Source of the DNA: Scenedesmus sp. PABB004
Taxonomy: Eukaryota
DNA: 64,000 nt
NCBI GenBank assembly: GCA_014905635.1
Contig: JABVCE010000015.1
Location: 620,001 to 684,000, forward strand
Direction: 5' to 3'
In this document: in pieces, positions 1,458 through 49,864 of the stretch
Position numbering within the stretch: position 1 is the stretch's first letter
How the letters are laid out: each line of letters begins with the position of its first letter
The notes under the pieces: generated by a model
What the model was told of the DNA's origin: nothing
Seen by the model: the letters and a program-made list of their open reading frames with translations, nothing else
Database searches by the model: none
Translations under genes and position numbers: made by a program

Positions 1458-3864
1458 TCACTTGGAGATGAGCAGATCGATGGCGTCCCGCAGCTTGCGC
1501 CCCAGGCTGGCGCTGCGTCGCGCCGCGGCGGCGGCCGCCGCGGCGCTCGCGGCGGCGCCGGGCGCGCCGCCGCCGGGCAGCGGCGACCCCGCGCCGGACG
1601 GCGGGCCGGAGCCCGAGCGCCAGCTCCCGCTGCTGCTGCTCGCCTCGGAGCCGGCGTCGGAGGAGGCGCGGCGCGGGGGCGGCCCGCGCGCCGCGTGGCC
1701 GCCGCCGCCGGGCGCGGCGGGCGCCGGCAGCGGCGCGTCGTCCTCCGGCTCGGCCGTGCTGCTGCTGGCGGCGCTCGCGGCGCTGTCGCGGCGCGGGACC
1801 GGCCGCCGCGGCGCGTCCTGGTCGCGCGGCGGCGCGGCGTCGCCGCCGCGGCGGCCGCCGCTGCCGCGCCGGCTGGCCGCGCTCACCGCGTCGCCGCCGG
1901 GCGCCGGCTGCGCGGGGCAGTGCTCCGCGAGCCCGCCGCGCCCGGCGGCGCCGGCGCCGCCACGCGCGGGCTCGCCGCCCGCGGCCTCGTCGCCGCCGCC
2001 GCTGGGCGCGAGCAGCTGCTGCGCCGCGCGCTGCGCGTCGCCGGCGGCCGCCGCGGTGGGCGAGCCGCCGGGGCTGGCCTCGCCGAGCAGGCGCTCGTCC
2101 GCGCCGCTGCTGCTGCGCCGCGCGGCCGACACGCTCGCGCAGTGCACCGCCGCGTCGTACGCGCCCGGCCCGGACAGGGTGAGAAGGCTGCCTGCTGGGA
2201 GGGGAGGGGAGACGGGCGGGGCGGACGGCGGGGCGCGGCGGGCGGGTGCGCGCGCGCGTCAGACCCGCCCCCGCCGTCTCGACGCGCGCCGCGCGCGCCG
2301 CGCGCGCGGCGCGCGAGCCTTTAAGCCCCGGCGCCTCCCAAACCCTGTGGTGCGCCGGCGCCTAAACCCTGACCTGAGCTCGGCTCGTCGCAGGTGAAGG
2401 TGATGTTGAGCTCGCTGTCGTCCGGCAGCGCGAACGCGCGGCGGATGGCCTCAGTGAACTGCCGGTACCCGTCCGCGCCCGGCGCGACCTGTGGGGTGGT
2501 GGGGGTGGTGGTGCGTGTGGTGGGGGTGCCGCGGCGTGGGTGCGGGCGCGCGCGCGCGCGGCCGCCGTCTCGACGCGGCGCGCGTCGGAGGATGAAAGAA
2601 CGCGACAGCGGCGCGCGCGCGCCGCAGCACCGCGCCGGCGGGCCGCGCGCGGCGGGCCGCCGACGCCCGCCGGCCGCGCGGGCGCAGCGCGCCGCTGGGT
2701 GGCGCGGCCGGTCCGTTTCCGATGCGGACCGAGCCCGCTACCCAGCCGCGCGCTGCGCCCGCGAGCCCGCGCCCGGACCCCGGCCTCCCCAACCATCAAA
2801 CACGCAGGCGGCGCAGCGGCGCGCGGTGCGGGGCGCTGCCCTCGGGTGCGGTGCGGCGCTCCCTCGCCCACACCACACGCCCACGCGCACCTGGAAGCTG
2901 TAGGTCTTGTTGTCAAAGTTTACGTTCATCACCGCCGGCGCCGTCGCGCCCGGCGTGGGCGTGAGCACGGCCTTCCAGTCGGGCAGCTCGGAGGCGCAGA
3001 AGTCGCAGAAGCGCTCGCGCCTGGCGGCGTGCGTGTGTGCGTGCGTGCGTGCGTGTGGGTGTGGGTGTGGGTGTGCGTGGTGGTGTGGGTGTGGGTGTGG
3101 GTGTGTGTGGGGGGGGGGGGGCGTGAGCGCGCGCAGCGCGTGCTGCTCCTGCCGCTGCCCCCGCTGCTGCGACGGCTGCGCCCGCCGCCGGCGGCGCGCC
3201 GCGCCGCGGCAGGCGCACCTGGTGCCGGCGCTCTGCAGCTGCCACCGCGCGACGCTGCGGGCGGGCGGGCGGCGCGCGCGGGGGGGGCGCGGCGTGCGTG
3301 AGCAGGCGCCCGAAGCAGCGGCAGCACCCCGCGCGCAGCGCCTCCCCCCGTCCCCCCGCGGCGCCGCCGCTCGGCCCGTCGCCCGTGTGATGCGGCCCCA
3401 GCCAGCTGCGTCCACGAGCTGGCAGCGCCCCACACGGGCGTCGGACCGCGCGGCGGCGCCCGCGCAGCGGGTGCGCGCCGGCGCCGGGCGGCCGCACCGC
3501 CGCCCCTGCGCCGCCGCCCACGCGCCGCCCGCTGCCGCGCGGTCCGCCCGGGGCGCGGCCCCGGCCCGCCCGGGCCCCCAGGCGCCCGCCCCGCACCAGG
3601 TTGCGTGGCACCAGCTCGGGCACTTGCAGGGGTGCATCAGCGGGCGGTCGAAGCTGGCTCCGTCGAGGCAGATCCAGCACACGTCGTCGCTCGCGCAGCC
3701 CTGCGCGCCGTGCGGGCGCGGGGTGGGCGGGGCGGGCGGCCGGCCGCGGCGCGCCTCGCGGCGTGCGCCGGGGGCCGCCCCGTCGCGCGCCCGCGACGCA
3801 CCTCGGCGTGCACGCTCACACAGCGCGGCCCGGCGGCGCGCTTGAGGGCGCAGTCGTCGGCCAT
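1458..3864 (-). CDS. RING-variant (C4HC3, MARCH-like) zinc-finger protein with a C-terminal PB1-like domain; multi-exon
   Basis: Spliced exons give MADDCALK...CWICLDG...HPCKCPSWCHATC-VARWQLQSAGTR-RERFCDFC...LPDWK, then VAPGADGYRQFTEAIRRAFALPDDSELNITFTCDEP and LTLSGPGAYDAAVHCA. GT-AG introns are in frame; stop at 1458. Confidence 0.85.
3028..3122. repeat. (GCGT)n/(GTGTGG)n simple repeat plus poly-G within an intron
   Basis: Directly visible: gtgtgggtgtgggtgtgggtgt... followed by a G run. Confidence 0.85.
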
Positions 3865-4474
3865 GGCCCCCGGCCGAGCTGGAATCGCCTGAGCGGCGCT
3901 CGGGACCAGGGCCGCGGTGCTCGCGCCCCAGCAGGCACTCCCGTAGGCGCTGGGCGCCGCCCGCTGCGCTCCGGGCGTCGCTGCGAGAGGCGGGGCTGCC
4001 TGCGCACGAGGAGGGTTGCCCCGCTGCGCTCGCAAGCTCGCACGGTCGGGTGGGGAGCCCGATCTGGCTGCGGCGATGCGGAGAGCCTGGAACTGGGCCA
4101 GGGAGCACGGAGGGCGGGCACGGGGGGCGGCGCGGGACGAGTCCAGTAAAACTCGCCGCCTGCTGGTGCAGCTGCTCGGGCCCGGCCAGCCCAGCGAGCG
4201 GCCGCGCGGCCTCCACATTCGCCGATCGGAGCTGCGTCGGCCCTGGGGCAGTGTACTCTCGGGTCCGCCCCCGCGCCGCCGCGGCGCCGGGCGGGAGCAG
4301 CGCGCGGCGGTCGCCGCGGCGGCGGGCCGGCGCGGCCCGGCGCGGCGTCAGCTGATAGCGCGCACTCACGCCGTGCCATGCGCGCGCGCACCGCTCCTCC
4401 GCAGCGTCGCCGCGCCGCGCGCGCCGCGGGCGCCCGCCGCGGGCGCCCGCCGCGGGCGCCCGCCGCCGGCGCCC

Positions 4475-5135
4475 CGCCGCGAGCGCCGTGTCGTGAGCAC
4501 GATGTGGCTCGACACACGCGCTCTCCCTCGCCCCAGCCCCGCGCCCCTGCGGGCCGGCCTGCTCCGCGGCGGCGGCGGCGCCCGGCACGCGCCGTGGCCT
4601 GTTCCGCGCCGGCCCGCCCGGCGGCCGGCGCGACCCGGGATGGCGTCCCCGCGACAGCTCATGCCCCCACACGCGTACCGCGCCCTGCCGGACGGCGGTG
4701 CCTGCCGTGCCGGGCGCGCGAGGCCGCGTGGGGCGCGGCCCGCCGTGGACCCGCCCGTCTCCCGCTCCGCAGCGCCCTCCCCAGCGCCCCGCACCAGCTC
4801 CCACAGTTCTCGCACACCCAAGCGCACCCCCACCGACACCGCGGCGAGCAGATCGAGCGACCCCCGGCTCCACGCCAAACGCAGCTGCACACGAGCCGAC
4901 ACCAGCGCGGCGTGGGCAGCGTTGATCGGCCCACGAGCTCTCCATAGCTCACCAGCAGCGTCAGCGCGCGCAAGCGCCAGGCGAGTGCTGCTGCCACGGG
5001 CGCGGCGCCAGGCTGGCCGGCGCGCGTGTGCCGCCGCCGCAGGCCCTGCGCGGCGCGGCGCGCGGCGGCGCGCGTGCGGGCTGCTGCGGATCGGGACGGC
5101 TGGTGGGCGAGCTGACCGGCCGCCGGCGCCGCCCG
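4475..5135 (+). repeat. ~660-bp duplicated upstream block, copy 1 (5' of LRR gene 1)
   Basis: Aligns by eye over its whole length to 8465-9130; both contain e.g. gcagatcgagcgacccccggctccacgccaaacgcagctgcacac. Small indels are present. Confidence 0.9.
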
Positions 5136-27000: not shown

Positions 27001-30000
27001 ATGGCGGCGCAGCCCGTGGACTGGCGCGCCGTGGACGCCGCCCTGGCGGCGGTAGCGCCCGAGTTCAAGGACCCAAAGTTCTACGCCCTCAAGCACGTGG
27101 TCGACATCCTCACCGCGCCCAACCCGCAGGCGCTCGTCGCGCAGGTCCGGGCCTCGCCGCCGCCGCCCGCGGCGCCGCCGCGCGGGCGTGCCTGGCGCCG
27201 CGCGCCGCCCGCCCACCGCCCCGGCCCCGCCGCGCCGGCCCGTGCGCGCAGCTGCGCGACCAGGAGGCGGTGCTCGCCGCGCTCGTTGACACCATGGTGT
27301 CCAGCTACCACGCGGGCTTTGCAAAGTCAATTCAAAACTACAGCCAGATCCTGCAGCTCTTCGGCGACGCCAAGGAGCAGGTGTGCGCGCCAGCGCGTGG
27401 ATCGATCAGTGCTGCGGCGGCCGCCCGGCCCGGCCCGGCAGCCGGCGCGGCGGCGGCGGCGCCCGCCCAGCGGCCCGGCGGTGGCGGCGGCGGCGGCGGC
27501 GCCGGCGGCGGCGGCCGAGCGCCCGCGCGCGCGTCACAGGTGGACGGCCTGAAGACGGCGCTGGCCGACGCGAGCCGGCAGCTGAGCAGCCAGTCGCGCA
27601 CGCTGCAGACGCAGGCGCGAGCAGGGGTCGGGGCGCGACCCGCGGCAGCGCCGGCGCGCGCGCAGCGGCAGCGCGCACAGCTGCCTGCCGCGGCAGGCGC
27701 CCGCCGGGGCACCCGCCGAACGCGCGCTGCCGCTGCTGTGCCGCCGGGGCGCAGTGGCGTAAGAGCCTCACGCTCGAGGCGTCGGTGAAGCTGCTGGACG
27801 ACGTACAGGTCGTGGCTGACGCGCCGGGGCGCATCGGCGAGGCGCTGGCCGCCAAGGCACGTGCGCTGCGCGCCGCGCCGCCCTTGGCGGCGCCTCACGC
27901 TCAACCCTTCTCAGCGCAGCGCCGGCGCCGCCGCCGCGCTGAATCTGCCGCCGCCGCCGCCGGGCGCAGGACTGGTCGGCCGCGGTGTCGATTCTGCTCG
28001 AGGCGTGCGCGCTGCTGGTGCGGGAGGAGCTGACCAAGGTGCGGCGCGGCGCGCGGGGCGGCGGTGGCCGAGGCTGGTGCGGTTCCGGGCCTCAAGGGTG
28101 CCGCCGCGCCCCCCGCAGGTGGGCGCGCTGCGCAAGCTGCGCCACGACACGCTGACGACGTGCCTCAGCATCCAGGCGCAGCTGCTGGACGAGCTGCACG
28201 CCCGCGTGTACGCCAGCAGCGGAGCAGCGGCCGCGGCGGCGGCCGCGGCGGCGGCCGCGGCGGCGGCAGCGGCCGCGGCGGGCGGCGGCGCCGCGCTGCA
28301 CGGCGCCGCACTCTACGCCGGGCCGCGGCGCCGGCTCGGCGGCGGCGGCGGCATCGACCGGCGGCTTCTGAAGGACAAGGCGGGCGGCCTGCAGCAGCAG
28401 GTGCGGGCCGGCGCGTGGCGTGTGCCGCGCGGCGTGTGCCGCGGGCGGCAGGGGCGGGGCAGCGCGGGCGGGCGGCGCGCCGGTCCGCGCGCGCCGCGAT
28501 CGCCGCCGCGCCCGCACCCCGCGCGCAGGCCGGCGGCCAGCTGTCGCCCGTGCCCGGCTCGCCGCGCACGCCGCGCTCGCCGGGCTCGCCGCGGTCGCCG
28601 GCGCCGGCCGCGCCGACCACGCCGCGCGCCGGCGGCGGGGGCTCGGCGCCGGCCACGCCCGGCGCGGGCGGCATGCCGTCGTTCGTGCTCGACGCGCTGC
28701 TGGGCGAGGGCGGCGGCGGCGGGCGCTGCGTGTCGCGCTGCGCCGGCGTCGCGGAGCTCGTCACCTGCCTGGGCAGCCTGGACGCGCTGGATGCGGCAAA
28801 GGCCCACCTCATGTCCCACGCGCGCGCGGCGCTGCGTCGAATGGTGCTCGAGGTGCGGCGCGCCCCCGCCCCCGCCCCCGCCCGCGCCCCGCGCGCCGCG
28901 CACCGCGGCCGCGCGGCGCGCCCGCCCGCCGCGCGTCACCGGCGGCGCCTGACGCCCGCCCGTGCGCGCGCGGCGCGCAGGTGGTGGAGTCGTGGGCGTC
29001 CGCGCAGGAGGAGGCGGGCGCCACGCTCGCGCAGCAGCGCGGCCTCGCGGCCACCGCGAGCGCGGCGGCGGGCGGCGAGCTGGGCTGGAGCGTGCGCGGC
29101 CTGATGGCGGCCACCGGTGCGGCGGGCACGCCCCGGAAGGGGGGCCTGGGAGGGCGCTGCGCCTGCGTGCGCACGGGCGCGGCCGGCGCCGCACCCACCG
29201 CCTGCCGGCGCTCGCCCCGTGCCCATGCCGCGCCGCAGCCTCCAGCGCCGGCGCGCCCGGCGCCGCCAGCCGCAAGCAGGCCTGGACGGTGCCGCCGGCG
29301 GTGCAGGGCGCCGCGCAGCGTCTGCTCGCCGCTGTGTTTGACGCCTGCCTGCGGTCGCTCGCCAACCTCGGCTCCCTCCTGCACGAGCTTGCCGAGGCCG
29401 GCGGCGCCGGCGGCGAGCAAGCGCCCGCGGGCGGCCGCGGCGCGGCGCGTGGCGCGGCCGGCGGCGCGGGGCGCAGCAACAAGAGCAAGGTGAGTTACCC
29501 GGGCAGCCCGACGAAGCACCAGGCGGCGGCGGCGGCGCAGCCGCAGCCGCAGCAGCGGCCGCCCGGCGCCAGCAACGCGCTCGCGGCGCTCAAGTCGCAG
29601 CTGGCGGCGGCCGGCGGCGGCGGTGGCGGCGCCGCCGAGCCGGGCGGCGCGCTGCAGCCGGCGGCGGGCGGCGGCCTGCGCGCGTCGCCGAGCAGCGACG
29701 GCCTGCGGGCCTCGCCGAGCGGCGGCAGCCTGCTGGCGCGCGGCAGCGCGGGCAGCGCAAGCTCAGGCAGCCTGGCGGCGGCCGGCGGCGGCGCCGGCGG
29801 CCCTGCGGACCTTGTCGAGGGCCTCGGCACTGCTGAGTACCTGCGGCTGCAGGTGGGTGCGCGGGCGGGAGGTTTTTGCCGCTGCGCGCCCGCCGCGCGC
29901 GCGCGGACGCGCGCGCCGGCAGCAGCCCCGCGGCGGCGCCAGGGCGCCTCCTCCTCACGGGCCTCTGCCCGCGCGCCGCAGGTGGGACACGTGTGGAATG

Positions 30001-34100: not shown

Positions 34101-34931
34101 GCGGCGGCGGTGGCCGCGCGGCGAGTAACGGGCTTGGTGCGTTGCAGGACCGCCGTCGCCGCTGGCTCCCGGGCGCAGTCACAGTCGCAGTGCGCGCATG
34201 TGGCAACGGTTCAGAACGACAGGCGGGCAAGAGGAAGCCAGTTTAAATGAAACGAGCGCTCCCCATCGGCGCGCGCGCCGGCGCGTGCGAGCTCCTGCCC
34301 ATTGGGGCAGCGCACGGTGCCCGGCCATGGCCAGCGGCCGGGCGCGCGCAGCCGAGGGGCGTCAGGGGAGGTGCGGCCATGCCATGGCCACCAGTGATGC
34401 GGGGGAGGGGTGCGATTGGTGACGCAGCGGTGAATTGATGTGTGAGCGACAGCCTGTGAAGGATGGCGTGATGTGGGGCCCCCCAGGGATTGTGTTGATG
34501 CTGAAGGTGCTGCACACACGCTTGGTCTCAATGACCAAGCCCGTCCAAGGCGCGCACGCACGCCCGCCGCGGGGCGCCGCCAGTTCAGTGCTGCGCGCCG
34601 CTGCGCAGCCGCGGTCCGGCCCGGGCACGCGCCCGCAGTTCGGTTGCGGGCGCGGTCGCAACCGCTCTTCGCCCAGTGCCGGCGTGGTGCTGGTGCGGCG
34701 CCGCCGCCTCGCGCGCGTGATGCTGCAGACGTGAGTACATCATTCATCATTTGTGACGCCCGCCCGTTAGGTTGCCGGCGGCGGAGTGCAGGATGCCCAC
34801 ACAGCTCAGATGACAATGCGATGCACAGCAGCAGGCCCCCGGCGCCGAGCCCGTATCTGCTCGACGCCCCGAGCTCGCGCGCGCCGGGGCGGCTGCGGGG
34901 GTCGCCCCGCGCGCGCAGCGCCCAGGCGGGC

Positions 34932-35135
34932 TCAGCCCGCGGCGCGCTGGGGGAAGCCCACCCTGAACACCAGGCCCAGCCCTGAGACGAGGTGCTGCGG
35001 TGGCGGAGGGGGCAAAGGCAGCGGCGGGCGGGCGAGGCGGCGTGAGGCGGCGCTGCGCCGGCGCGCGCGCGTGCGCGGGGGCACCGCGCCGCCGCCAGCC
35101 GTGGGCTGTGGGCGCAGGCTCACCCAGTCGATGCT

Positions 35136-35175
<40 letters not shown>

Positions 35176-38100
35176 GCGGCGGCGCGGGGCGGCGGCGGCG
35201 GTCAGCGGCCGGCGCGCACGCAGTCAAAACCCTGACAGACACATCAAAACCGTCAAAACCGCGGTCAGAGTGCCAGGAAAACAAACAAACGCTCACTGGC
35301 AGTGCATGAGGTGAATCCCGGGGTTGTCCGCGACGAAGCGCAGCACGATGTGGCTGTTGCCAGCGACCGTCACCGTGTCGCGCGCGACCGACGCGACGAG
35401 CGGCGTCGCGCGCGGCCTGCGGGCGCGCGGCGCGCGGGGCGCGTCGGCGGCGTCCACGCGCGCGCGCCGCCGCCGCGGTCCCGTCCGCCCTCCCTCCCTC
35501 CCTCCCTCCCTCCCATCCTGCCCTGCGCCTGCCCCGCGCCGCGCCGCGTCAGTCACCTGAAGTCGCCGTCGCCCTGGAAGCCCACGGCCATGATGAAGAA
35601 CCACATGCCGTGCGTGTGCATCGGGTGCTCGCCTGGCGGGCGGCGCGGGCGGCCGTTATGTTGTCATGTTATGTTGTCATCTTTGAGGTTTTTTTTGAGT
35701 TTTTTTTCCGGCCGTCAGGCGCCGTGCGTCGCCGCCCCACGCAGTCACAAACGAGCACGCGCGCACAGCAAGCGCACGCGTGCCGGCGGTGACCCCTGAT
35801 GCAGTCAGACCACAAACCCTAAGCCCCGCACGCGCACCGTTGTCGTGGTTGTTGATGACGACGTCGACGACCTCGCCGAGCGCGACGTCCACAATCTGCC
35901 AGCCCACCCCAAATGGCGCGCCCAAGGGCGGCCCGAGGCCCTCCGGGTTGCTGCTGTAGCGCTCGAGGAGGGAGGGGCCGTCGGAGGGCGCCATCGCGAG
36001 GGACACGTTGTTCAGGTGCCCGTAGCTGCGCCCGGCGCGGCGGCGGCGGTGCGGGGTTCAGGGGTTATCGGGGCTTGGCTGCCGCTGCAGGGCCCAGGCG
36101 CAGCGGCGGCTGCTGCGCCCGCTCCTCCCTGACGCGCATGCCCCCTAAACACCACCAACACCAAGCGCGGCCGCCGGCACTCACTGCACGCCGCTGGGCT
36201 CGTTGTACATGTCAATGGCATAGGTCAGCGTGCGCGTGGAGTTTGGCGGCACGGCGCCGCCCGCGACCGACATCTGGGGGCAGCGCGGGACGCGGGCGGG
36301 TGAGCAGGGCGGTCGGTGGGTGGGTGGGGGCAAGGAGAGCGAAGCCCCGCCCCGCCGCGTCGTGCCGGCCCGCACGGCGGCGCCGCGCCGTGCTGTGCGC
36401 CCAACCTGCGCCCCTCAAAACCTTGAGCCCCCCCTCCTAAACCTGAGCCGCCCCTAAACCTGAGCCCGCCCCTAGACCTGAGCCGCCCGCGCACCTGGTA
36501 CGGCCCGATCAGCACGTCGCCCAGGTGGCGCTCGTAGTACTCAGGGGAGAGACCTGGGTTTAGGGGGCAGGTGGCAGGGTTTAGAGGTGGGCGGACCCGC
36601 CTCCAGGGCAACGGGGCGGGACGGCGTGCGCTCCGCCCCGCGCCGCGCCCCGCGCCGCCCGCCGCACCCGCCCCTAAACCCCGGGCGCGCGCCTGGGAAG
36701 GTGAGGTTGGCCTTGCTGTCGGGCAGCTGGCGCGGCGGCGCCTCGCCAAAGTGCAGCACCGCGAGCGTGAGGTTGGTGGCGGAGGGGGTGAGGAACTCCT
36801 CGTCCATCATCGTGGCCCTGGGGGAGGGCGGTTTCGAAAACGGGTTTTGAAAACGGCAGGGTTTTGGGCGTGTCGGTGCGCGGCTTGGGGGTTTGGGGGG
36901 CGCGGGCGGGGCGCGTGCGCGGGCGGGCACGCGCGGCCGCCGAGGCGGCGGCGGGGCCGGGCTGTGGGGTGGGCGGCGTGCGGCGGGGCGCGGAACGCGG
37001 GGCGCGGAACGCGGGGCGCGGGGCGCGGGGCGCGCACCGTATCCAGACCGGCGCGTCGCTGAGCACCTCGCCGGCGGCGAGGCGCTGGCAGGGCAGCACG
37101 TCGTAGCGCTGGCCTGTGTTGCACGGTAACGGATGGGTGTGTGTGTGTGGTGGTGGTGGGGGGGGGCGAATGCGGGGCCAGCGTCAGAGGCGGGCGGGGG
37201 CGGCGCCCGCGCACGCGGGCCGGAGGGCTGCGTCGCTGCGTGAGGCTGCCAAACCCTTCAAACCCTTACGACCCTGAACCGCTCAAACCCCGCACCGTTG
37301 TTCAGCGTGAGGCTCCCCACCTCCACCGGCTCCACGCCCACGCCGTCCTGCGACACCACGATCAGCCTGCGGCGGCGGCGGCCAGCGCGCGGCCGCGTCG
37401 GCCCGCCCGCCCCTGGCCCGCCCGCGGCGGCGCGAGCCGCAGCGCGGCATATGCGGCGCGGCGCGGCAGCGGCGGCGGTTGTCCAACAGCCCACGCCCAC
37501 AGCCCCCGCCCACAGCCCACGACCGCGCGCACGCCTGTGGTTGTCAATGCTGACGTTGAACACGGCGCTGCCGCCGGCGTTGATGATACGGAGGCGCGTG
37601 CGCGGGTGGTCGCACGTGCTCGCCACGGCCCGCACGTAGCTGTAGCCGCACGGCGGCGCGTCGGGCGCGGCGCCGCGCGGCGCCGGCGCCGCGCCGGCCG
37701 CGACCGCGCGCGGCTGCGGCGCGCAGTGGCCCTGGCCGTGCTCATTGATGAGGCCAGAGTGCGGCGTCGGCTCGCGCCCGCCCTGCGGCGCGGGGCAGCG
37801 GGGCGGCGCGGGGCGTGGGACGCAGGCGCAGCGGCTCTGCTCCCCCCCGCGCTGCCAAGCGCCACGCGCAAACGCCACCCCCTCGGCCGCGCCCGCGCCC
37901 CAGAGCCCCTGCCCTGGCGGCGCCCTCCAAAACCCTGACGGCGCCCTCCAAAGCCCTTCTCCAAAGCCCTGCCCCAAAGCCCTGCCCACAGGGGCCCCGC
38001 GCGCCTGCTTCCCGGTGCCCATGTAGGCGGCGACCAGCGACTCCGCGGTGTCCGGGTACCAGTCGCGCAGCGCGACGACCGCGTCGGCGTTGTAGCGCCC

Positions 38101-38343
38101 TGCGTCGGCCGGCGCGCGCACGATGAGGTAGCCGGACAGGCCGTCAACGTACTGCGTCTGCGGGCGCGCGTGCGTGCGTGCGTGCGGGGTTGTTATATAG
38201 TTTTGTCATTTTTGTCATGTTGTTGTTATGTGGCGGTTCAGGGGGGAGGCCCGGCCGGCGCGAGGCCTGTGAGACCGCCGCCGCGCGCCGCCGCTGCGCC
38301 GCCGCGCCGCGCGCTCCGCGCGTCGTCCCGCCCCCCGGGCCGC

Positions 38344-38383
<40 letters not shown>

Positions 38384-40176
38384 GCATGCGCGCGCACCAT
38401 GGTGTGCGAGTGCATCCAGAACGTGCCTGCCACGTCCACCACAAAGTTGTACGTGAATGTTTCTGGCAAGGCGGGGCAGGGGCAGGGGCGGGAGGGGTTG
38501 GCGGCCGGGTCCGGCGCGGCGCCGGGCCGGGTCCGGGTGCCGCCACGCCCCGCCCAACAGTCTCAGGGGTCCCTGAGGCTCAAACCAACAACGCCAGCGG
38601 ACGCGGCCGCGGCGCGGGGCGCACCGCCGTCGCGGATGAGGCGCTGCGTCGCGACGTCGGCGCCGTCCATCAGGTTGTACCCGCGCTGGGGCAGGCCGTG
38701 GAAGTGGAGGCTCGTGGGCATGCCGATGGCATTGGTGAGCGCGAGGACGACCCGGTCGCCGACGAGGGCATCGATCTGAGGGAAGAGCTCGTCGTTCCAC
38801 ACAATGACCTGCCCGGGGGTTTAGGGAGGGGTGAGAGTTAAGGGTTTAGGGTTCAGGGTTAAGCAGGGCGAGGCGCGGACGGGCCGGGGCGGGGCGGGCA
38901 GGCCAGGGGCCCGGCGGGGGCGGGAGGGGGCGGTGGCGCGCGTGCTTCACACGCGCACCCACACGCACACACGAGTGCGCGGCGCCTGCGTGAGCACCCA
39001 CGCGCGCTGCGCGCGCACCGGGCGCTCGAAGCCGTCGAGGGCGAGCCGCTTCCAGCGCAGCGTCCACGCAAAGCGCAGCACGCGGCCGCCGCCCGGCGCC
39101 GCGCCGGTGCACGCGGCCGACGCGGGGCTGAGCCCCGCGCGGCAGGTCGGGGCGTGGCAGTAGATGCTCGCGTCGGCGACGCAAAACCCAAACTGGCTGC
39201 GGCGGCGGCGGACGCGGCGGCGGGGTGTCGTCGGCGCTGCGTGGGGCACACGTGTGCGGCGCGCGCCCGCGCGGCGCGGGCGCGAGCGCTCCCGACCTGC
39301 AGCACTGCCGGTGCGGGCAGGTCGCCACGTACACGCCGCACGGCCCGCCGGGCTTGGCGACCGGGAGCGCCGACGCGCGCGGCACCGCAAACGGGAAGGA
39401 CCCGGCGCAGTTGCTCAGCACGCCGCTGAACCTGCGCGGCGGGCGGTCGCCGCCCGCGCGGCGGCGGTTCGCAGGTGCAGCGGCGGGCGCGCAGCGCGGG
39501 GCGGCGGCGGGCGGAGCGCGCGGACGCGCACCTGCACTGGCAGCTGCCGGCGCACGCGACAGCCGACTTGCTGCACACGCCCGCCTGGCCGCAGCACAGG
39601 CCCTGTCGCCGCGCCGCGGGCGGTGGGGCGGTGGGCGGCGTCAGCGGCCGCGGCTGCCCCCCCTCCCGCGCAGGCCCCCTGGGTGCCCCGGCCGCCGCGC
39701 TGCGCCCGCCCGGCTGCACGCAGCGCGCGGGTGCGCGCCCACCATCGCGCACACGGCGACGCCCTCGCCGCACGCGCCGCCCTCGGGCGCGGTCGGCAGC
39801 TCCGCGCAAGCGCCGCTGCCAAAGCCCAGGCCCGCGGCGCCGCGCAGCCCCGCCGCGGCGCCGGCGTCCGCGCCGGCCAGGTGTGCGTAGTTGACCAGCG
39901 AGTAGCGGCTGACGTTGGCCGTGCCCGCCACGCCCTGCCACGCCCGGCCGGGGCGCAGCGCCAGGGGCGCGGGGAGGCGCAGGAGCAGGCGCGCCGGCGG
40001 GCCCACGCCGCGGCGGCGCCGCCGCGCGCCGCGGGCAGCAGCGCGTCCAGCGCCGCCGGCACGCCGCCGGACGAGGCGAGGTGGCGTGCAGTCGCGCCGC
40101 AGCCGCTCGCCAGGGCCAGGGCAAGCGCCAGCGCGATGCACGGGAGCGCGCACGCGCGGCGCTGGGGTGTCCGCAT
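34932..40176 (-). CDS. Secreted multicopper oxidase (laccase/Fet3-like) with two N-terminal hevein/CBM18-type chitin-binding domains; many exons
   Basis: All four Cu motifs are present: TSLHFHGL, GTFWMHSH, HPMHTHG, NPGIHLMHCHIDWHLVSGL. Signal peptide, then CGEGVAVCAMGLCCGQAGVC...C and CGVYVATCPHRQCCSQFGFC...YC. Apparent frameshift near 40010. Confidence 0.9.
36410..36490. repeat. Intronic ~18-bp tandem repeat (CCCCTAAACCTGAGCCGC-like, ~4 copies), telomere-related
   Basis: cctaaacctgagccgcccctaaacctgagcccgccctagacctgagccgccc is directly visible. Confidence 0.75.
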
Positions 40177-40999
40177 CGTCCGCGACTGTCGTCGACAGCG
40201 GGCGGCTCACCCCAGGCGCTGCGGCTCCGGTGGCTGGTCTAGTGGGGAGTGGTGGTTGCGTTGGCGGACTCTGCGCACGATTCGCACGGGCGCTTGTCGG
40301 TGCCCAAGTTGTCGAACGGGTCGACCCGAGTGACGGAGCGACTACAACGTGCGTCGTCGCTGCTGGGTGCTTGAGGGATCGCGTTATGTTAATTGCGAGG
40401 CTGCGGGGGACGGGGGAGCGCACGCCAAGTGCCAAGGAAGTGCAGCAGTTCACTGAGCGCAACAACGCGCCCCGCGCCGCGCCCGCCCGCCGCTCGCGTC
40501 CGCCGCTGCGCCTGAAGGTGCGACGGTAAGACCTCTAGCATCCTGAATGCACGAGCGCGGGCATCGCGCGCCCTGCAGACCGGGGCATGCCGAGTGCCCG
40601 CCGCCGTGCGCTCCCACGTCGCCGGCCCACGCCGCCGCTGCCAGCAGCAGCGCCAGCAGGCGCGGCGCCAGCGTCGGTCACCGCCCGGCACGCGCCCCCG
40701 GCGGCGGCGCGGCCATGCGGCGGGCACGCCGCGGGCACGCCGCAGTGACGCGCTGCAGCGGCGCAGCGCGGGGGGTGTGCAGGGCGTGCAGGGGTGAGCT
40801 GTTCCAGATGCAGCTGACGGGTTGAGCTCGCCCAGACGCAGCTGACGCACACTTGCCGTCGTCCGCTGCCGCTGCTGCTGCCGCGCGCGTGCCCACCTTC
40901 CGGGCGCCCAAAAACTGGCTTGGTGGGACAGTTTTGAGCGCACAGGAGCCTGGGCGAGGCCTGGCGCTCGTTCGTGCGTGCGCGGCGCGGCGTCACCGG

Positions 41000-44324: not shown

Positions 44325-46301
44325 GGCGTGCTGGTCGCCGTGTACGTGTGCTGCGGCTTCGGGGTCAAGGCGGCGGCGGGGCTCGCGCAGGCGTCGGTCG
44401 CGGGCCTCTCGGGCGTCGCGCTCGCGTCGCGCCTCTTCCGCGCGCACCCCTGGGACGGCGGCCGCCCGCTGGTGGACCTCGACCTCGCGCTGCTGCTCGC
44501 GCCGGCGAGCCTGCTGGGTACGGGCGTGGGCGTGGTCGTGAACGACCTGCTGCCCGAGTGGGCGCTCGCGGCGGCGCTCGCCGCGCTGCTCGCGCTCGTC
44601 GCGCGGCGCAAGGCCATCCAGGGGCTCACGCTGCGCGACGAGGAGGGCCGCGCCGAGTCGGCGGCGTGCGCGGCGGCCGTGATCGGCGGCGGGCCGCGCC
44701 CGATGCTGCGCCCAATCTGCACCGTGCCGAGCGGCGACGCCGACGGCGACGGCGCGCTCGCGGCGGCGGCGGGCGCGGCGGTGGCGGCGGACAAGGGCAG
44801 CCCGCCGCCGGCGGGCGGCGCCGGCGAGGAGCCGTTGCCACCGCGCGTAGTCGCGGCGGCGCTGGACGACGACGGCAGCAGCGAGCCGCCAGCGCCCAGC
44901 TCGAGCGGCTGGGGCAGCAGCTCGCCAGAGGCGGAGGCTGAGCCCAAGCCTGAGGCGGAGGCGGAGCCGAAGCAGGCCTGGGGGGCGCGGCGGCAGGCGC
45001 GGCGCGGCCTGACGCGCAACGGCAGCGGCAGCGACGCGAGCGGTCGCAGTGGCAGCGACGACCTGAGCGCGCCGCTGCTGGCGCGCGACCGCGATGGCGC
45101 GGACGCGCGCGGCGCGGACGCGAAGCAACAGCTCGGCGCCGCTGCAGGCGCGGGCGCCTGGCTGGCAGATGCCAAGGCGCCTTGGCCTGGCGTCGGCGGC
45201 GGCGACGGCGGCGGCGACGGCGGCGGCGACGCGGCCCGCGGCGCGGCGGCGCCCCCCGCCGCGCCCTGGCCGCCCGCGGGCGCGGGCGCCGCGCGCCCCC
45301 CGTCGCCGCTGGCCGCGCGGCGCGCGGGCGCGGCGCCGCCCGGCGCGCCCGGCGGCGCCGGCGGCGGCGTCGTGCCGTTTGGGCTGTTCCCCTGGGTCAA
45401 GCTCGCGAGCGTGGGCCTGCTGGCGGCCGGGTTCATCGGGCTGAGCGCGGCGGACGTGCTCATCCCGCTGTGCAGCTGGGCGTACGTGGCGTACGTGCTC
45501 GCACTCCTCGCGCTCACCGCCGCGGTCACCGCCGCGCTGGCGCAGCTCATGCTCGTCGCGCCGCTGCGGCGCAGCGCGGCCGCCGCGGCCGCCGACGGCG
45601 ACGCGGCGAGCGCGATGGAGGAGGAGCGCGGCGGCGGCGGCTGCGGCGGCGGCGGCTGCGCCGGCCCGCTCGGCGGCGCGCCGCGCCGGCTCGCGGCGTG
45701 GCTGGCGGCGCTGACGGGCAGCGCCCCGCCGGCGGCGGCCGCCGCGGCCGCGGCCGCGGGCGGCCCGGGCGGCCGCGTCAGCCTCTTCAGGCAGCACCAG
45801 CTGCGCCAGGGCGCGGCGGCGGCGTGCGGCGACGGCGAGGTGCCGGCGGAGAGCCTCGCGCACGCCGCGGCGGCGGCGGCGTGCGTCGCGGGCGCGGCGG
45901 GCGTGTCGTCGGGCGCTTGCGGGCTCGCGAGCAGCGCGCTGCTCGTGCCGACGCTGCTCGACTTTCGTGTGCACCCCCAGGTCGCCAACGCGACGTCGGT
46001 GCTGCTCGTGTGGCTGTGCAGCTGCACCGGCAGCCTCTGCTTCCTCCTGCAGGGCCGCCTGGTCGGCGCGTACGCTGGCTTCTACGCCGCGGCCGCCGCC
46101 GCCGGCGCGGCGGCGGGGCACGCGGGGCTCGCGCCGGCGCTGCGCGCGTCGCGCGTGCGCGGCAGCGCGCTCGTGCTCGCGCTCGCCGGCCTCGCGGGCG
46201 CCGCGGCCGCCGCGGCGGCGGGCTTTGGCGCGCGCGCGCTGCTCGCCGCGCTGCGGGAGCACGAGGGGCTGGGCTTCCGCGCGCTCTGCTCGCCCACGTG
46301 A
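43912..46301 (+). CDS. TauE/SafE (sulfite exporter) family membrane protein; one intron at about 44231-44326
   Basis: HPWDGGRPLVDLDLALLLAPASLLGTGVGVVVNDLLPEW and VPTLLDFRVHPQVANATS match the plant/algal TauE/SafE pattern. Confidence 0.85.
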
Positions 46302-46969: not shown

Positions 46970-49864
46970 TCAGTGGTGGTCCGCGTGGACGTAGTCAACA
47001 TAGATAAAGAGCGCCCGCAGCTTGAGCAGCCCCGCCACGGCCGCCGCAGCCGCGGCCGCGACGCCCGCCGCCGCGGCCGCGAGCGGCGCGGCCGCGCCCG
47101 CCGCGCCCGCCGCGCCCGCCGCGCCCGCCGCGCTCGCCGCGCCGGCCGCGGCCGCGACGAGCGCGCCGGCCGCGACCGCGCCGAGCACCGCCGCGACGGC
47201 GATGGCCGCCTGCGTCGCCGCGAGCGCGGCGGAGCAGTGCGGGCAGTGCTCCGTGTGCTGGCGCAGGCGGTCGAACACCGCCTCGCGCGGCAGCGCCGGC
47301 GGCAGCCCGCCCGGCCCGCGCGGCAGCACGGGCAGGCCCAGGCCGTGGCGGTCGAGCCAGCGCCGCCATGCAGCCACGCCGGCGTCCGCCTCAGCAGGCA
47401 TGTAGTACTGCTTGCGCCACGACGACACGTCGCCGCGCGAGTAAAACACGCGCTCCTGCGCGCCGCGCGGCGGCGGCGGACGCCGGCTGGCGGCCGCGCC
47501 GGCGCTGCGCGGCAGCCGGGCGAGTGCGGCGCTGCGCGGCCGCCGCGCAGCCGCCGCGACCCCTAAACCCTGAGCCTCAAGCCCTAAACCTCGAGCCCTG
47601 AACCCTGAATGTCAAGCCCGCACCCCCAGGTGCATGAAGTATGTGTCCCCGTCTATGATGGCGTTGCGGTTGAGCGCGTGCTGCAGCGCGGGGACCTGCG
47701 GGGACGCCGGCGGGCGGCGGGGCCGCCGGCGTGGCGCGGGGCGGCACGGGCGCGCGGGGGGCGCTCAAGAGGGGGAGGGCGACGGGGAGGCGCGTGCGCG
47801 CCCGCGGGGCGCGCGGCCGGGCCGGCACGGCGCCGGGCGCGGCGCCGGGCGGGCTGCTGCCGCGGCGGCGGCGCCGGCGCGGCGCCGTGCTGGGTCGTGG
47901 CGGGTGTCATGTGACATGACGTGACGTGACTCACCCGCTCCACGACGGCGTCCAGGAACCAGTTGAGCAGCGGCGGCAGCGCCGGCGTCGCGGGCCGCGT
48001 CTGCGTGCTGCCCGGCGGCGACACGAAAGACATGATCACCCGGCTCCACCCCGCTGCGCGGCGCGGCGGCCGGCGCGGCGGGGCGCGCGGCGCGGCGGTC
48101 GGCGCGGGGCGCGCGGCGCGGTCAGCGAGCCGCGCGCGCCGCGCGAACCGCGCGAGCCGCGCGCGCCGCGCGAGCGAGGGCGGGGCCCCCAGCCGCCGCC
48201 GGGCGGGCGGGCGGGCGGGCGCAAGCGCGCTGCAGCCCGGGCGGGCCTCACGCGCGCTGGGCATCGCGTAGAGCAACATGCTGATGGGCCCAGGGAAGGA
48301 GAACCTGGCGGCGGCGGCGGCGGGGCAAGGGCAGGCTCAGGGCCCTGCCGTCGGCGCTCGCGCGCACCCGTCCGGCGGCGGCGCGCGGCGCGGCGGCGCG
48401 CACTTGACGAGGCAGGGCGGCGTGAAGTCGACGACCTGCGCGCCAACGCCGCCGGCCTGGGGCGCGAGCGAGACCGCAAAGCCGCCACTGCAGCTCACTG
48501 CGCGGCTCAAGACCATGCCCAGGCGCTGGTCGCTCTCGCGGTCGCCCTGCGCGGCGGCGGCGGCGGCGGCGGCGCGGCCAGGGGGCGTTGTATCGCGCGG
48601 CCCGCCGCCGCGGCCGCGGCGGGCGACGCGCGGCGCGCGGCGGCGGCGGCGGGGCCTCGCACGCGCCGCGCACCAGCACGCCGTGGTGGGACTGTGGGAC
48701 GTGCGATGGGTCAACCAGGTTCTCCATGATGGTGTCAAAGCTCAGCGGGACGTCGCGCTGGAACCACGGCACCGCGAGGTGCCAGCCCTCCGACCCGAGC
48801 TGCGCGCACGCGGCGCGGGGCGGGCCTGCGGGCGCCGGCGCGGCGCGGCGCGGCGCGGGCGGCGTGGGGCGCGGAGCGCGCGCGGTGGCGCGCGCCGGGT
48901 TCAGGGTGCCGCGCGGGGCCGCACCCGCGGCGAGCAGGGCCGCCGCGTCTGCCGAGGCGTCTGGGTAGACCCAAAGCATGCCCTGCAGCTCCTGCCCCGG
49001 GGTCGCCGCCGTCCAGGTGCCGGGCGGGCGGGAGGGGCGGGCGCGGCGCGGGTGAGCCGCGGCGCGGGGCGGCGCCCCGCCGCGCAGCCCGGCTGGCGCG
49101 CGGCCGCGCGCACGCCCGCGCGCCCGCCGGCGGCACGCCCGACCGACCTGCACGGGGAACGAGCGCACGCACGAGCGGCTGCTGGCGCAGGCGGTGCGCA
49201 GCGCCTTGGGGTCAGCGATCTGGGGGATGGCGGTGCACGCGCCGTCGCCGTTCCACCGCCACCTGCGGCGCGGGCGGCGCGCGCGTCAGCTCGGCGCGCC
49301 GGCCCGGCCGGCTGCCGGCGGCGCGGGGCGCCGCCCCGCGCGTGCGCACCCGTGGTATGCGCACTGGATGTCGCCGCTCGCGGGGTGCACGCGGCCCTCG
49401 GACAGCGGCGCCAGCCTGTGCGGGCACACGTCCTCCACGCAGTGCCACGCGCCCGCGGATCGCCAGACGCAGAGCTTGGTGCCCAGGAGCGTCGCGGCGT
49501 TGGGCACATCGGCCTTGAGCGCCGTCAGCGCGGCCAGCGGGTACCACGCGGCGCGCCAGTCGAACAGCTCCTCGCCCGCCGCGGGCGCCTGCTCCTCCTC
49601 GCGCGCCGCCGCGGGCGGCGCCGTGGCAGCTGCGGTGGCCGCAGCGGCCGCCTGCGGCGCGCCGACGTCGCGCCGCGCGGCCTGCGGCCTGGCCTGGCGC
49701 AGAAGGCGCGGGCCCCGGGACGGGCCGGGCGCCGCCCGGCGGGCGCCGCTGGGCGGCCGCTGCCGCCGCTGCTGCTGCCGCTGCTGCAGCACCGCCGCGG
49801 CGCCCGCCGCGGCGCGCGGCGCGCCGCGCCCAGCGGCCGAGAGAGGGCGCCCGGCGGACAGCAT
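46970..49864 (-). CDS. Chloroplast Rieske/mononuclear-iron oxygenase, PAO/Tic55/PTC52 family
   Basis: Transit-peptide-like N-terminus, FDWRAAWYPL, Rieske DVCPHRLAPLSEG...IQCAYHGW, Fe site ENLVDPSHVPQSHHG, QHTEHCPHC, TM segment, and C-terminal FIYVDYVHADHH. Confidence 0.92.

Follow-up and report, generated by a model that had tools for sequence, protein, structure and literature searches.

A candidate Fet3-type multicopper ferroxidase with tandem hevein-like modules in Scenedesmus sp. PABB004 and related green algae

Introduction

The gene described here lies on the minus strand of a 64,000-nucleotide stretch of the green alga Scenedesmus sp. PABB004 (contig JABVCE010000015.1, positions 620,001 to 684,000; hereafter the window, whose own numbering is used throughout) and is predicted to encode a multicopper oxidase (MCO) preceded by two Cys-rich modules. 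The closest described enzyme is yeast Fet3p (PDB 1ZPU, CAZy AA1_2), with which the predicted protein shares three cupredoxin domains, copper motifs that include H-C-H-I-x-W-H-L-x-x-G-L, an axial Leu and equivalents of four iron-site residues. An excerpt of PMC9880977 describes E185, D283 and D409 of Fet3p as binding Fe(II) and passing the electron to the type 1 (T1) copper, with a contribution from Y354. In contrast to Fet3p, the window protein lacks both a transmembrane segment and a cytosolic tail at its C-terminus, carries about 200 extra N-terminal residues that hold the two modules, and has no permease gene seen nearby (24–50 kb). Secreted laccase-ferroxidases of fungi, such as Phanerochaete MCO1, are also soluble and anchor-free with equivalents of E185 and D409, but in the same excerpt D283 or Y354 was kept in 0 of 34 of these enzymes and no lectin modules are present.

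The domain of hevein, WGA and class I chitinases (CBM18, PF00187, PROSITE chitin-binding type-1) resembles the algal modules in its Cys spacing around a central Cys-Cys pair, and module 2 also has a Ser, two aromatic residues and a Tyr at the positions of its sugar-binding residues. The algal modules differ in having Phe in place of Trp/Tyr, in the absence of aromatics from module 1, in a conserved Cys-containing linker after module 1, and in being joined to an oxidase and not to a chitinase or lectin. Chlamydomonas FOX1 is a six-domain ceruloplasmin-like protein and not a three-domain enzyme of the Fet3 type, and we know of no hevein modules on FOX1, plant LPR1 or MCO1/MCO3. These proteins are comparable to the window protein as green-lineage ferroxidases located outside the plasma membrane (FOX1: PMC9476460, in excerpt).

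Association of this oxidase family with carbohydrate-binding modules has been noted before. Levasseur et al. (2013; PMC3620520) remarked that AA1 is 'surprisingly' associated with CBM1, CBM18 and CBM20 and may act on chitin or starch; the passage compared here names no organism, subfamily or domain order and reports no test of function. UniProt, moreover, automatically names the Tetradesmus obliquus copies 'Chitin-binding type-1 domain-containing protein'. An earlier note on this stretch had treated the architecture as uncharacterised in algae, and given the 2013 CAZy remark and the automatic name this claimed too much novelty. A literature search whose coverage excluded most subscription journals turned up no work on an algal MCO that carries hevein or chitin-binding modules, and the portions of PMC11839794, PMC9405338 and PMC9476460 that were covered contain nothing on this protein. 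With AA1-CBM18 fusions and the automatic naming already known, what appears to be new is a Fet3-type ferroxidase in which a lectin tether would replace the anchor, an arrangement that a small clade of chlorophytes has conserved. The reading that we favour, with moderate confidence, is that the gene product is a secreted, soluble, Fet3-type multicopper ferroxidase with two N-terminal hevein-like (CBM18-type) modules replacing the transmembrane anchor.

Fusion of the modules to the oxidase

The coding region was read by eye on the minus strand (window 34880-40260) and then assembled from its exons; feature coordinates were derived by hand from the exon table and numbering and then compared with position rulers. 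Its ATG and stop coincide exactly with the gene span of the earlier note, and its principal features are the following.

34932..40176, minus strand: whole coding region, 19 exons, 743 amino acids (aa), ATG at 40176-40174, TGA at 34934-32
40102..40176, minus strand: signal-peptide-like N-terminus, aa 1-25
39534..39772, minus strand: hevein-like module 1, aa 93-125, split by intron 2 (39742-39603), aromatic sugar-binding positions gone
39109..39340, minus strand: hevein-like module 2, aa 157-200, split by intron 4 (39296-39197)
39019..39196, minus strand: exon 5, the fusion joint, one open frame that takes in the second half of module 2 together with the first strand of MCO domain 1
34932..39084, minus strand: three-domain multicopper oxidase, aa 209-743, exons 5-19

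On sequence grounds the fusion of the modules to the oxidase is real, because exon 5 spans the joint, the architecture recurs in relatives (collected proteins carry P numbers here), and one relative, P0005, is a single uninterrupted open reading frame (ORF) of 2172 nt on a metagenome contig (L001) that encodes signal, both modules and MCO. The pattern C-x4,5-CC-x5-C-x5,8-C was found in 8 of 153 collected proteins, always before the first H-x-H-G of the MCO, and this recurrence, restricted to the region N-terminal to the oxidase, argues against a chance pattern. The N-terminus shows an Arg-rich start and a 13-residue hydrophobic core, judged by eye to resemble a signal peptide as the earlier note had proposed; the structure model places a helix at residues 11-24, and P0002, P0003, P0005 and P0120 start alike.

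Relationship of the modules to hevein domains

The two Cys-rich modules, previously estimated to lie at about 39790-39110, both contain an eight-Cys pattern with a central Cys-Cys pair. The spacing taken from the sequence is, for module 1, C-x6-C-x4-CC-x5-C-x6-C-x3-C-x-C and, for module 2, C-x6-C-x4-CC-x5-C-x7-C-x4-C. Module 2 reads CC-S-Q-F-G-F-C...I-Y-C and module 1 reads CC-G-Q-A-G-V-C, the latter with no aromatics. At the positions that we take to be the hevein sugar-binding residues, the residues of module 2 are Ser, Phe, Phe and Tyr and those of module 1 Gly, Ala, Val and Ala; WGA (C-T-N-N-Q-C-C-S-Q-Y-G-Y-C) has Ser, Tyr and Tyr there. Alignment to WGA and to relatives thus agreed with the earlier proposal that module 2 keeps its Ser and aromatic positions and that module 1 has lost them.

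A profile built from eight sequences gave 28 matches in the PDB at E<=1, all 28 of them hevein-domain proteins (best: pokeweed lectin-C at 2.1e-10 and WGA at 1.4e-8). A three-sequence profile searched against all PDB sequences likewise retrieved only hevein-domain proteins (22 of 22 matches at E<=10), with both modules aligned and module 1 aligned to the hevein domains of pokeweed lectin-C, WGA and Sm-AMP. In the full-length structure model (predicted template modelling score, pTM, 0.80) the block of residues 91-210 had pLDDT values (from the predicted local distance difference test) of 82-95, except for 77 at residues 141-150 in the inter-module linker. Modelling of the P0005 modules from a single sequence gave a poor structure (pLDDT 56.9), whose top 15 Foldseek rows were all hevein-type at E values of 0.015 or worse. 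A feature search of the protein atlas yielded no usable match; its structure rows, which serve as leads only because every TM-score was below 0.5, contained PF00187 members in 7 of the 10 nearest clusters. Across eight aligned stretches the cysteines and the linker motif C-Q-x-x-x-S-G-x-x-S-x-C were invariant. We conclude from these comparisons that the two modules are homologous to hevein/CBM18 domains, though divergent. Pfam applied exon by exon is blind to them, because introns split both modules.

The oxidase and its iron site

Pfam analysis of the deposited version of the protein (P0001, see below) placed Cu-oxidase_3 at 1.4e-27, Cu-oxidase at 1.2e-17 and Cu-oxidase_2 at 3.4e-27 (bit scores 96.6, 64.9 and 95.3; cut-offs 21, 21 and 20.4). 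Among single exons only 6, 9 and 17 exceeded the Pfam cut-off (45.6, 26.6 and 37.5 bits), and exons 7, 8 and 16 gave sub-threshold matches of the Cu-oxidase type (18.8, 14.1 and 19.6 bits). All four copper-ligand motifs (HxH, HxH, HxxHxH and HCHxxxHxxxx(L/M/F)) are present in the spliced model, the fourth as H-C-H-I-D-W-H-L-V-S-G-L, which needs a 10-nt microexon; its axial residue is Leu, as the earlier note had read it. The residues concerned are listed below, with Fet3p numbering taken as the 1zpu chain index plus 21, an offset fixed by the His motifs.

38695..38706, minus strand: first copper motif H-F-H-G, aa 265-268
38404..38412, minus strand: second copper motif H-S-H, aa 309-311
37771..37773, minus strand: Glu373 (G-G-R-E-P-T-P), equivalent to Fet3p E185, matched to chain residue 164 when HMMER aligns P0001 with 1zpu
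36802..36804, minus strand: Asp506 (R-A-T-M-(I/M)-D), equivalent to Fet3p D283 through the alignment of P0002 to 1zpu (chain residue 262), same column in the window protein
36022..36024, minus strand: Tyr593 (V-(Q/H)-Y-(A/G)-H), equivalent to Fet3p Y354 through the P0002 alignment
35842..35844, minus strand: Asp653 (N-N-H-D-N-G-E-H-P), equivalent to Fet3p D409 (chain residue 388)
35610..35627, minus strand: third copper motif H-P-M-H-T-H, aa 657-662
34932..34994, minus strand: last exon with His724, axial Leu729, 14 further residues and the stop

The acidic residues that the earlier note had compared with E185 and D409 align to 1zpu directly, and the D283 and Y354 columns of the window protein rest on alignment through the relative P0002. 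Laccases aligned with P0002 are non-acidic at the E185 and D283 positions. Fet3p (1zpu) was the sole PDB sequence at E<=1e-30 for P0001 (5.5e-42), and in Foldseek it gave the best TM-score (target 0.76) and root-mean-square deviation (3.7), with about 24% identity in the structural alignment. The oxidase is therefore Fet3-like, and because all four Fet3p iron-site residues have equivalents, a ferroxidase rather than a phenol oxidase is indicated.

The C-terminal transmembrane anchor is absent, as had been proposed: the window protein stops 14 residues past the axial Leu, and in all eight clade members with a complete C-terminus the tail runs 7-13 residues past that residue. Among the other 84 rows of the alignment the last motif is present in 68, of which 14 have a tail of at least 40 residues with a hydrophobic stretch, including the sisters P0013 and P0014. 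A downstream anchor exon beyond 34932 was considered and dismissed because the relatives end at the same place.

Related proteins and trees

An exhaustive HMMER search returned 6068 proteins at E<=0.001, of which the best 150 were listed. A word-index search with residues 85-225 of P0001 found nothing beyond P0001 itself, and the corresponding full-length search found four proteins. The hevein-bearing members with species names are two Scenedesmus sp. PABB004 paralogues and proteins of T. obliquus and Chlorella ohadii, and among the matches listed the architecture appears to be that of one small chlorophyte clade that includes the last two species. A locus search with P0005 as query recovered L001 and 10 distant loci (L002-L011), whose best segments are 24-40% identical.

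Two trees were calculated, both unrooted. FastTree was applied to 144 rows, leaving out P0004 and proteins under 480 aa, and placed nine hevein rows on one side of a branch with support 81, eight of them at 97. An IQ-TREE quick search with 36 hand-chosen rows grouped its seven hevein rows at 96 (Shimodaira-Hasegawa-like approximate likelihood ratio test, SH-aLRT), with C. ohadii branching first and the window copy sister to paralogue P0003 plus Tetradesmus. The window copy was the most divergent Scenedesmaceae member (end branch 0.65).

Locus tags of the T. obliquus hevein-MCO genes are consecutive in each of two assemblies (P0155/P0156 as OEZ85_004088/004089 and P0154/P0157 as OEZ86_005810/005811), which suggests a tandem pair; a full-length Tetradesmus member has 729 aa. 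These copies group with the Scenedesmus paralogue P0003 and not with the window copy (IQ-TREE).

Those outer relatives that bear a name, within the 30 clusters looked up, were fungal (chytrids, Mucoromycota, yeasts, rusts and Suillus), with a springtail and a rotifer in addition. The fungal-like ancestry raised in the earlier note amounts to a resemblance: the named outer relatives are mostly of the fungal Fet3/laccase type, in unrooted trees whose nearest sisters (P0007, P0008, P0013, P0014 and P0034) are unnamed. 'Fungal-type' is used here as a description of the MCO family and does not imply a transfer.

Gene structure and the deposited model

The 19 exons contain no in-frame internal stop and are given here from high to low coordinates, followed by the sites that needed particular attention.

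40176-40063, 39934-39743, 39602-39532, 39431-39297, 39196-39019, 38808-38625, 38462-38398, minus strand: exons 1-7
38157-37990, 37782-37535, 37366-37296, 37113-37038, 36817-36693, 36553-36495, minus strand: exons 8-13
36273-36185, 36025-35838, 35632-35557, 35416-35297, 35133-35124, 34994-34932, minus strand: exons 14-19
37533..37534, minus strand: inferred GC donor of intron 9, border AG/GCGTGC, the sole donor that yields N-H-R-L-I-V-V free of an insert, as in P0002/P0003
36691..36692, minus strand: inferred GC donor of intron 12, border G/GCGCGC, where the deposited model reads on into the intron
35124..35133, minus strand: 10-nt microexon (C ATC GAC TGG) with CAG acceptor and GTGAGC donor, completing H-C-H-I-D-W
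39971..39974, minus strand: apparent one-base frame slip in a C-run relative to homologues, the ATG frame reading C-S-C-A-S-P and the next frame A-P-L-A-L...T-A-N-V-S

Acceptors are CAG in all 18 introns, and donors are GT in 16 of 18 (eight of them GTGCGC) and GC in the other two; intron lengths range from 100 to 240 nt. GC content at third codon positions of the coding sequence is 0.94, and the window as a whole has a GC content of 0.72-0.83 in 2-kb steps. Frames that run for several hundred codons without a stop overlie one another on its two strands. An ORF on its own is uninformative here, because this extreme GC-richness opens long frames in all six frames. The exon model was instead compared with its relatives: in tblastn searches with P0002 and P0003 successive residues fall on the model exons, and no GT donor giving a frame that matches the relatives was found at introns 9 and 12. 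The microexon is backed by the C-termini of P0002 and P0003, which read H-C-H-I-D-W-H. Both motifs that flank the frame slip are contiguous in P0002 and P0003, and the slip reflects an indel in the assembly or else a real change that splicing bypasses; the exon 1/2 junction is uncertain for this reason.

With exon 5 as query, 100% identity was obtained to the deposited 769-aa protein 'fetC [Scenedesmus sp. PABB004]' (P0001). Its splices equal those of the revised model through the Cys-rich part and most are common overall, with four differences: the exon 1/2 junction, a 7-residue insert, a 30-residue Arg/Gly-rich insert and the C-terminal end. The 7-residue insert results from use of a later GT donor at intron 9 (block 461-470, pLDDT 61), and the Arg/Gly-rich insert, at the second GC-donor site, lies in a block with pLDDT of 33-46 in the AlphaFold model. 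P0001 ends ...H-L-M-H-C-Q and, because the microexon and last exon are absent, is without one type 3 (T3) copper His, one T1 His and the axial residue. Neither insert occurs in P0002 or P0003, which end H-C-H-I-D-W-H-(V/L)-A-A-G-L-G-...-G-F-P plus 2-4 residues. At its catalytic C-terminus the deposited gene model is in error, and the splicing of the last copper motif given in the earlier note, microexon included, is right, because the relatives lack the inserts and end alike and the P0001 inserts have low pLDDT. A protein expressed as annotated would come without a T1/T3 ligand set. In window coordinates the early stop of P0001 and its two inserts, which resemble retained intron, correspond to 34932-35296, 36554-36692 and 37367-37534.

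A telomere-like repeat, GGTTTAGGG (at most one mismatch, both strands), occurs in 30 copies in the window against 2.39 expected, and 30 copies were reached in 0 of 100 shuffles. Seventeen of the 30 lie within this gene (35817-38858), all intronic in the model and in both orientations; further copies are found at window 6229, 32629 and 47561-47604.

Genomic surroundings

Among 145 ORFs of at least 90 aa in the 24-50 kb portion of the window, the sole Pfam matches at E<=0.001 were Sec8_N, TauE and Rieske.

~27250-27390, plus strand: exocyst Sec8 N-terminal domain, E 4.3e-7
~44330-44600, plus strand: TauE/SafE-like membrane protein that stays under the Pfam cut-off (E 5e-6)
~49345-49545, minus strand: Rieske [2Fe-2S] domain, E 1.5e-15

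The metagenome contig that carries the intronless clade member (L001, 1-9857; 9.9 kb, 70-79% GC, gene at 2716-4890) has adh_short, protein kinase and peptidase M16 genes as neighbours, the last split over two frames, and looks like DNA of a eukaryote with few introns.

Competing interpretations

Several observations weigh against a Fet3-type ferroxidase held by a lectin tether. Matches to PF00187 (Chitin_bind_1) were obtained for 9 of 10 members tested, all below the gathering cut-off of 27.8 bits: P0062 scored best at 23.8, followed by P0005 (22.6), P0157 (19.3), P0001 (18.8), P0120 (18.4), P0002 (17.9), P0011 (15.1), P0003 (13.3) and P0159 (12.8), with no match for P0006. The match in P0001 covers residues 167-200 at E 0.0019. 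Of the Pfam domains that the earlier note expected, the three Cu-oxidase families were therefore recovered above their cut-offs and Chitin_bind_1 was not; the same note had regarded the absence of a CBM18 hit as damaging to its case, and here the sub-threshold Pfam result stands beside PDB profile matches that are all to hevein-domain proteins. Aromatics of module 2 are kept only in Scenedesmaceae, C. ohadii and P0062, and have been lost from module 2 of P0005, P0011 and P0120 and from most module 1 copies; chitin binding is thus not the property that the clade conserves. On the catalytic side, fungal laccases were level with Fet3p in the PDB ranking of P0002 (5.3e-55 versus 2.2e-54), and in Foldseek ascorbate oxidase (1aoz, 2.7e-40) tied with Fet3p (1zpu, 2.9e-40), both ahead of the laccases. 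The full E-D-Y-D pattern was present in only five rows, all Scenedesmaceae, of the eight clade rows with residues at all four columns of the 95-row alignment; other clade members keep the E and the D409 equivalent and vary at the middle two positions, in columns that are less certain. In fungi the FTR1-type permease that partners Fet3 is often encoded by an adjacent gene. No match to this family (PF03239) was found among the 145 ORFs described above, where short exons could conceal one, or among the 20 ORFs of L001.

One alternative is that the modules derive from hevein domains but are no longer lectins, forming a rigid extension at the N-terminus that packs on the oxidase or regulates it, or a module for protein-protein contact or oligomerisation, with no part for chitin; it fits either catalytic reading. 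The missing aromatics just described, in module 1 of the window protein and in module 2 of three relatives, are consistent with it, as are the invariance of the cysteines and linker motif, the PF00187 scores that stay sub-threshold in all ten members tested (10/10), and the high pLDDT of the module block (82-95, linker 77), which fits a fixed position on the enzyme. However, Ser-x-Phe-x-Phe of module 2 is kept in Scenedesmaceae and C. ohadii, with the Tyr also kept in Scenedesmaceae, and this is hard to explain without selection for sugar binding. We consider a complete loss of the lectin role possible, if on the whole unlikely.

A laccase-like phenol oxidase or mixed laccase-ferroxidase, secreted and held on chitin or N-acetylglucosamine (GlcNAc) polymers, where it would cross-link or polymerise wall phenolics or attack chitin-walled parasites such as chytrids, was the reading of the earlier note. 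It draws on the position of fungal laccases at the top of the P0002 matches, on the axial Leu common to fungal laccases and the window oxidase, on a soluble and secreted form like that of the fungal laccase-ferroxidases (PMC9880977, in excerpt), on the chitin-binding residues retained in module 2, and on extracellular laccase activity reported for the green alga Tetracystis aeria, as cited in passages of PMC7036934 and PMC10541563. Against this, equivalents of E185, D283, Y354 and D409 are all present, whereas the aligned laccases are non-acidic at the first two positions and the excerpted set of 34 laccase-ferroxidases kept neither D283 nor Y354 (PMC9880977); the best PDB match of the window protein is Fet3p alone, and the aromatic lectin residues are missing in several clade members. 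We consider this reading rather unlikely. That the fusion is an artefact of annotation or assembly, or the gene a decaying paralogue without a functional protein, is very improbable: the apparent frame slip at 39974-39971, the two non-GT donors required and the long end branch (0.65) of this most divergent Scenedesmaceae copy could be read in this way, but exon 5 alone bridges the joint, the copper ligands and iron-site residues are intact with no in-frame stop in 19 exons, relatives share the architecture, one of them as an intronless ORF, and the frame slip sits in a poorly conserved N-terminal stretch with pLDDT below 50.

Discussion

Under the interpretation that we favour, a soluble Fet3-type ferroxidase with hevein-like modules in place of the anchor, the protein would be exported from the cell and module 2 would tether it to putative polymers or glycoproteins that contain GlcNAc, in the wall or periplasmic space, with module 1 perhaps acting as a spacer or scaffold. 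At the cell surface the enzyme may then convert Fe(II) to Fe(III), with O2 being reduced to water, and could serve as the oxidase step of reductive iron uptake or in the control of Fe(II) in the wall space.

A wider proposal, offered tentatively and in our view unlikely as it stands, is that core chlorophytes swapped a Fet3-type anchor for a tandem lectin tether. Iron would be oxidised in the wall and not beside a permease, with Fe(III) held on wall polymers as a store outside the cell or Fe(II) buffered, and without direct channelling to FTR1; where the chitin-binding residues are kept, the tether could also reach chitin-walled parasites.

High-affinity iron uptake is poorly defined in green algae other than Chlamydomonas. 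For Scenedesmaceae and Chlorella, algae in industrial use, the clade described here provides a candidate ferroxidase, and one that would be built unlike either yeast Fet3 or Chlamydomonas FOX1. It may also offer a natural example of a lectin-positioned oxidase, through which the effect of membrane versus wall location on iron capture, and the exposure of GlcNAc, would become testable.

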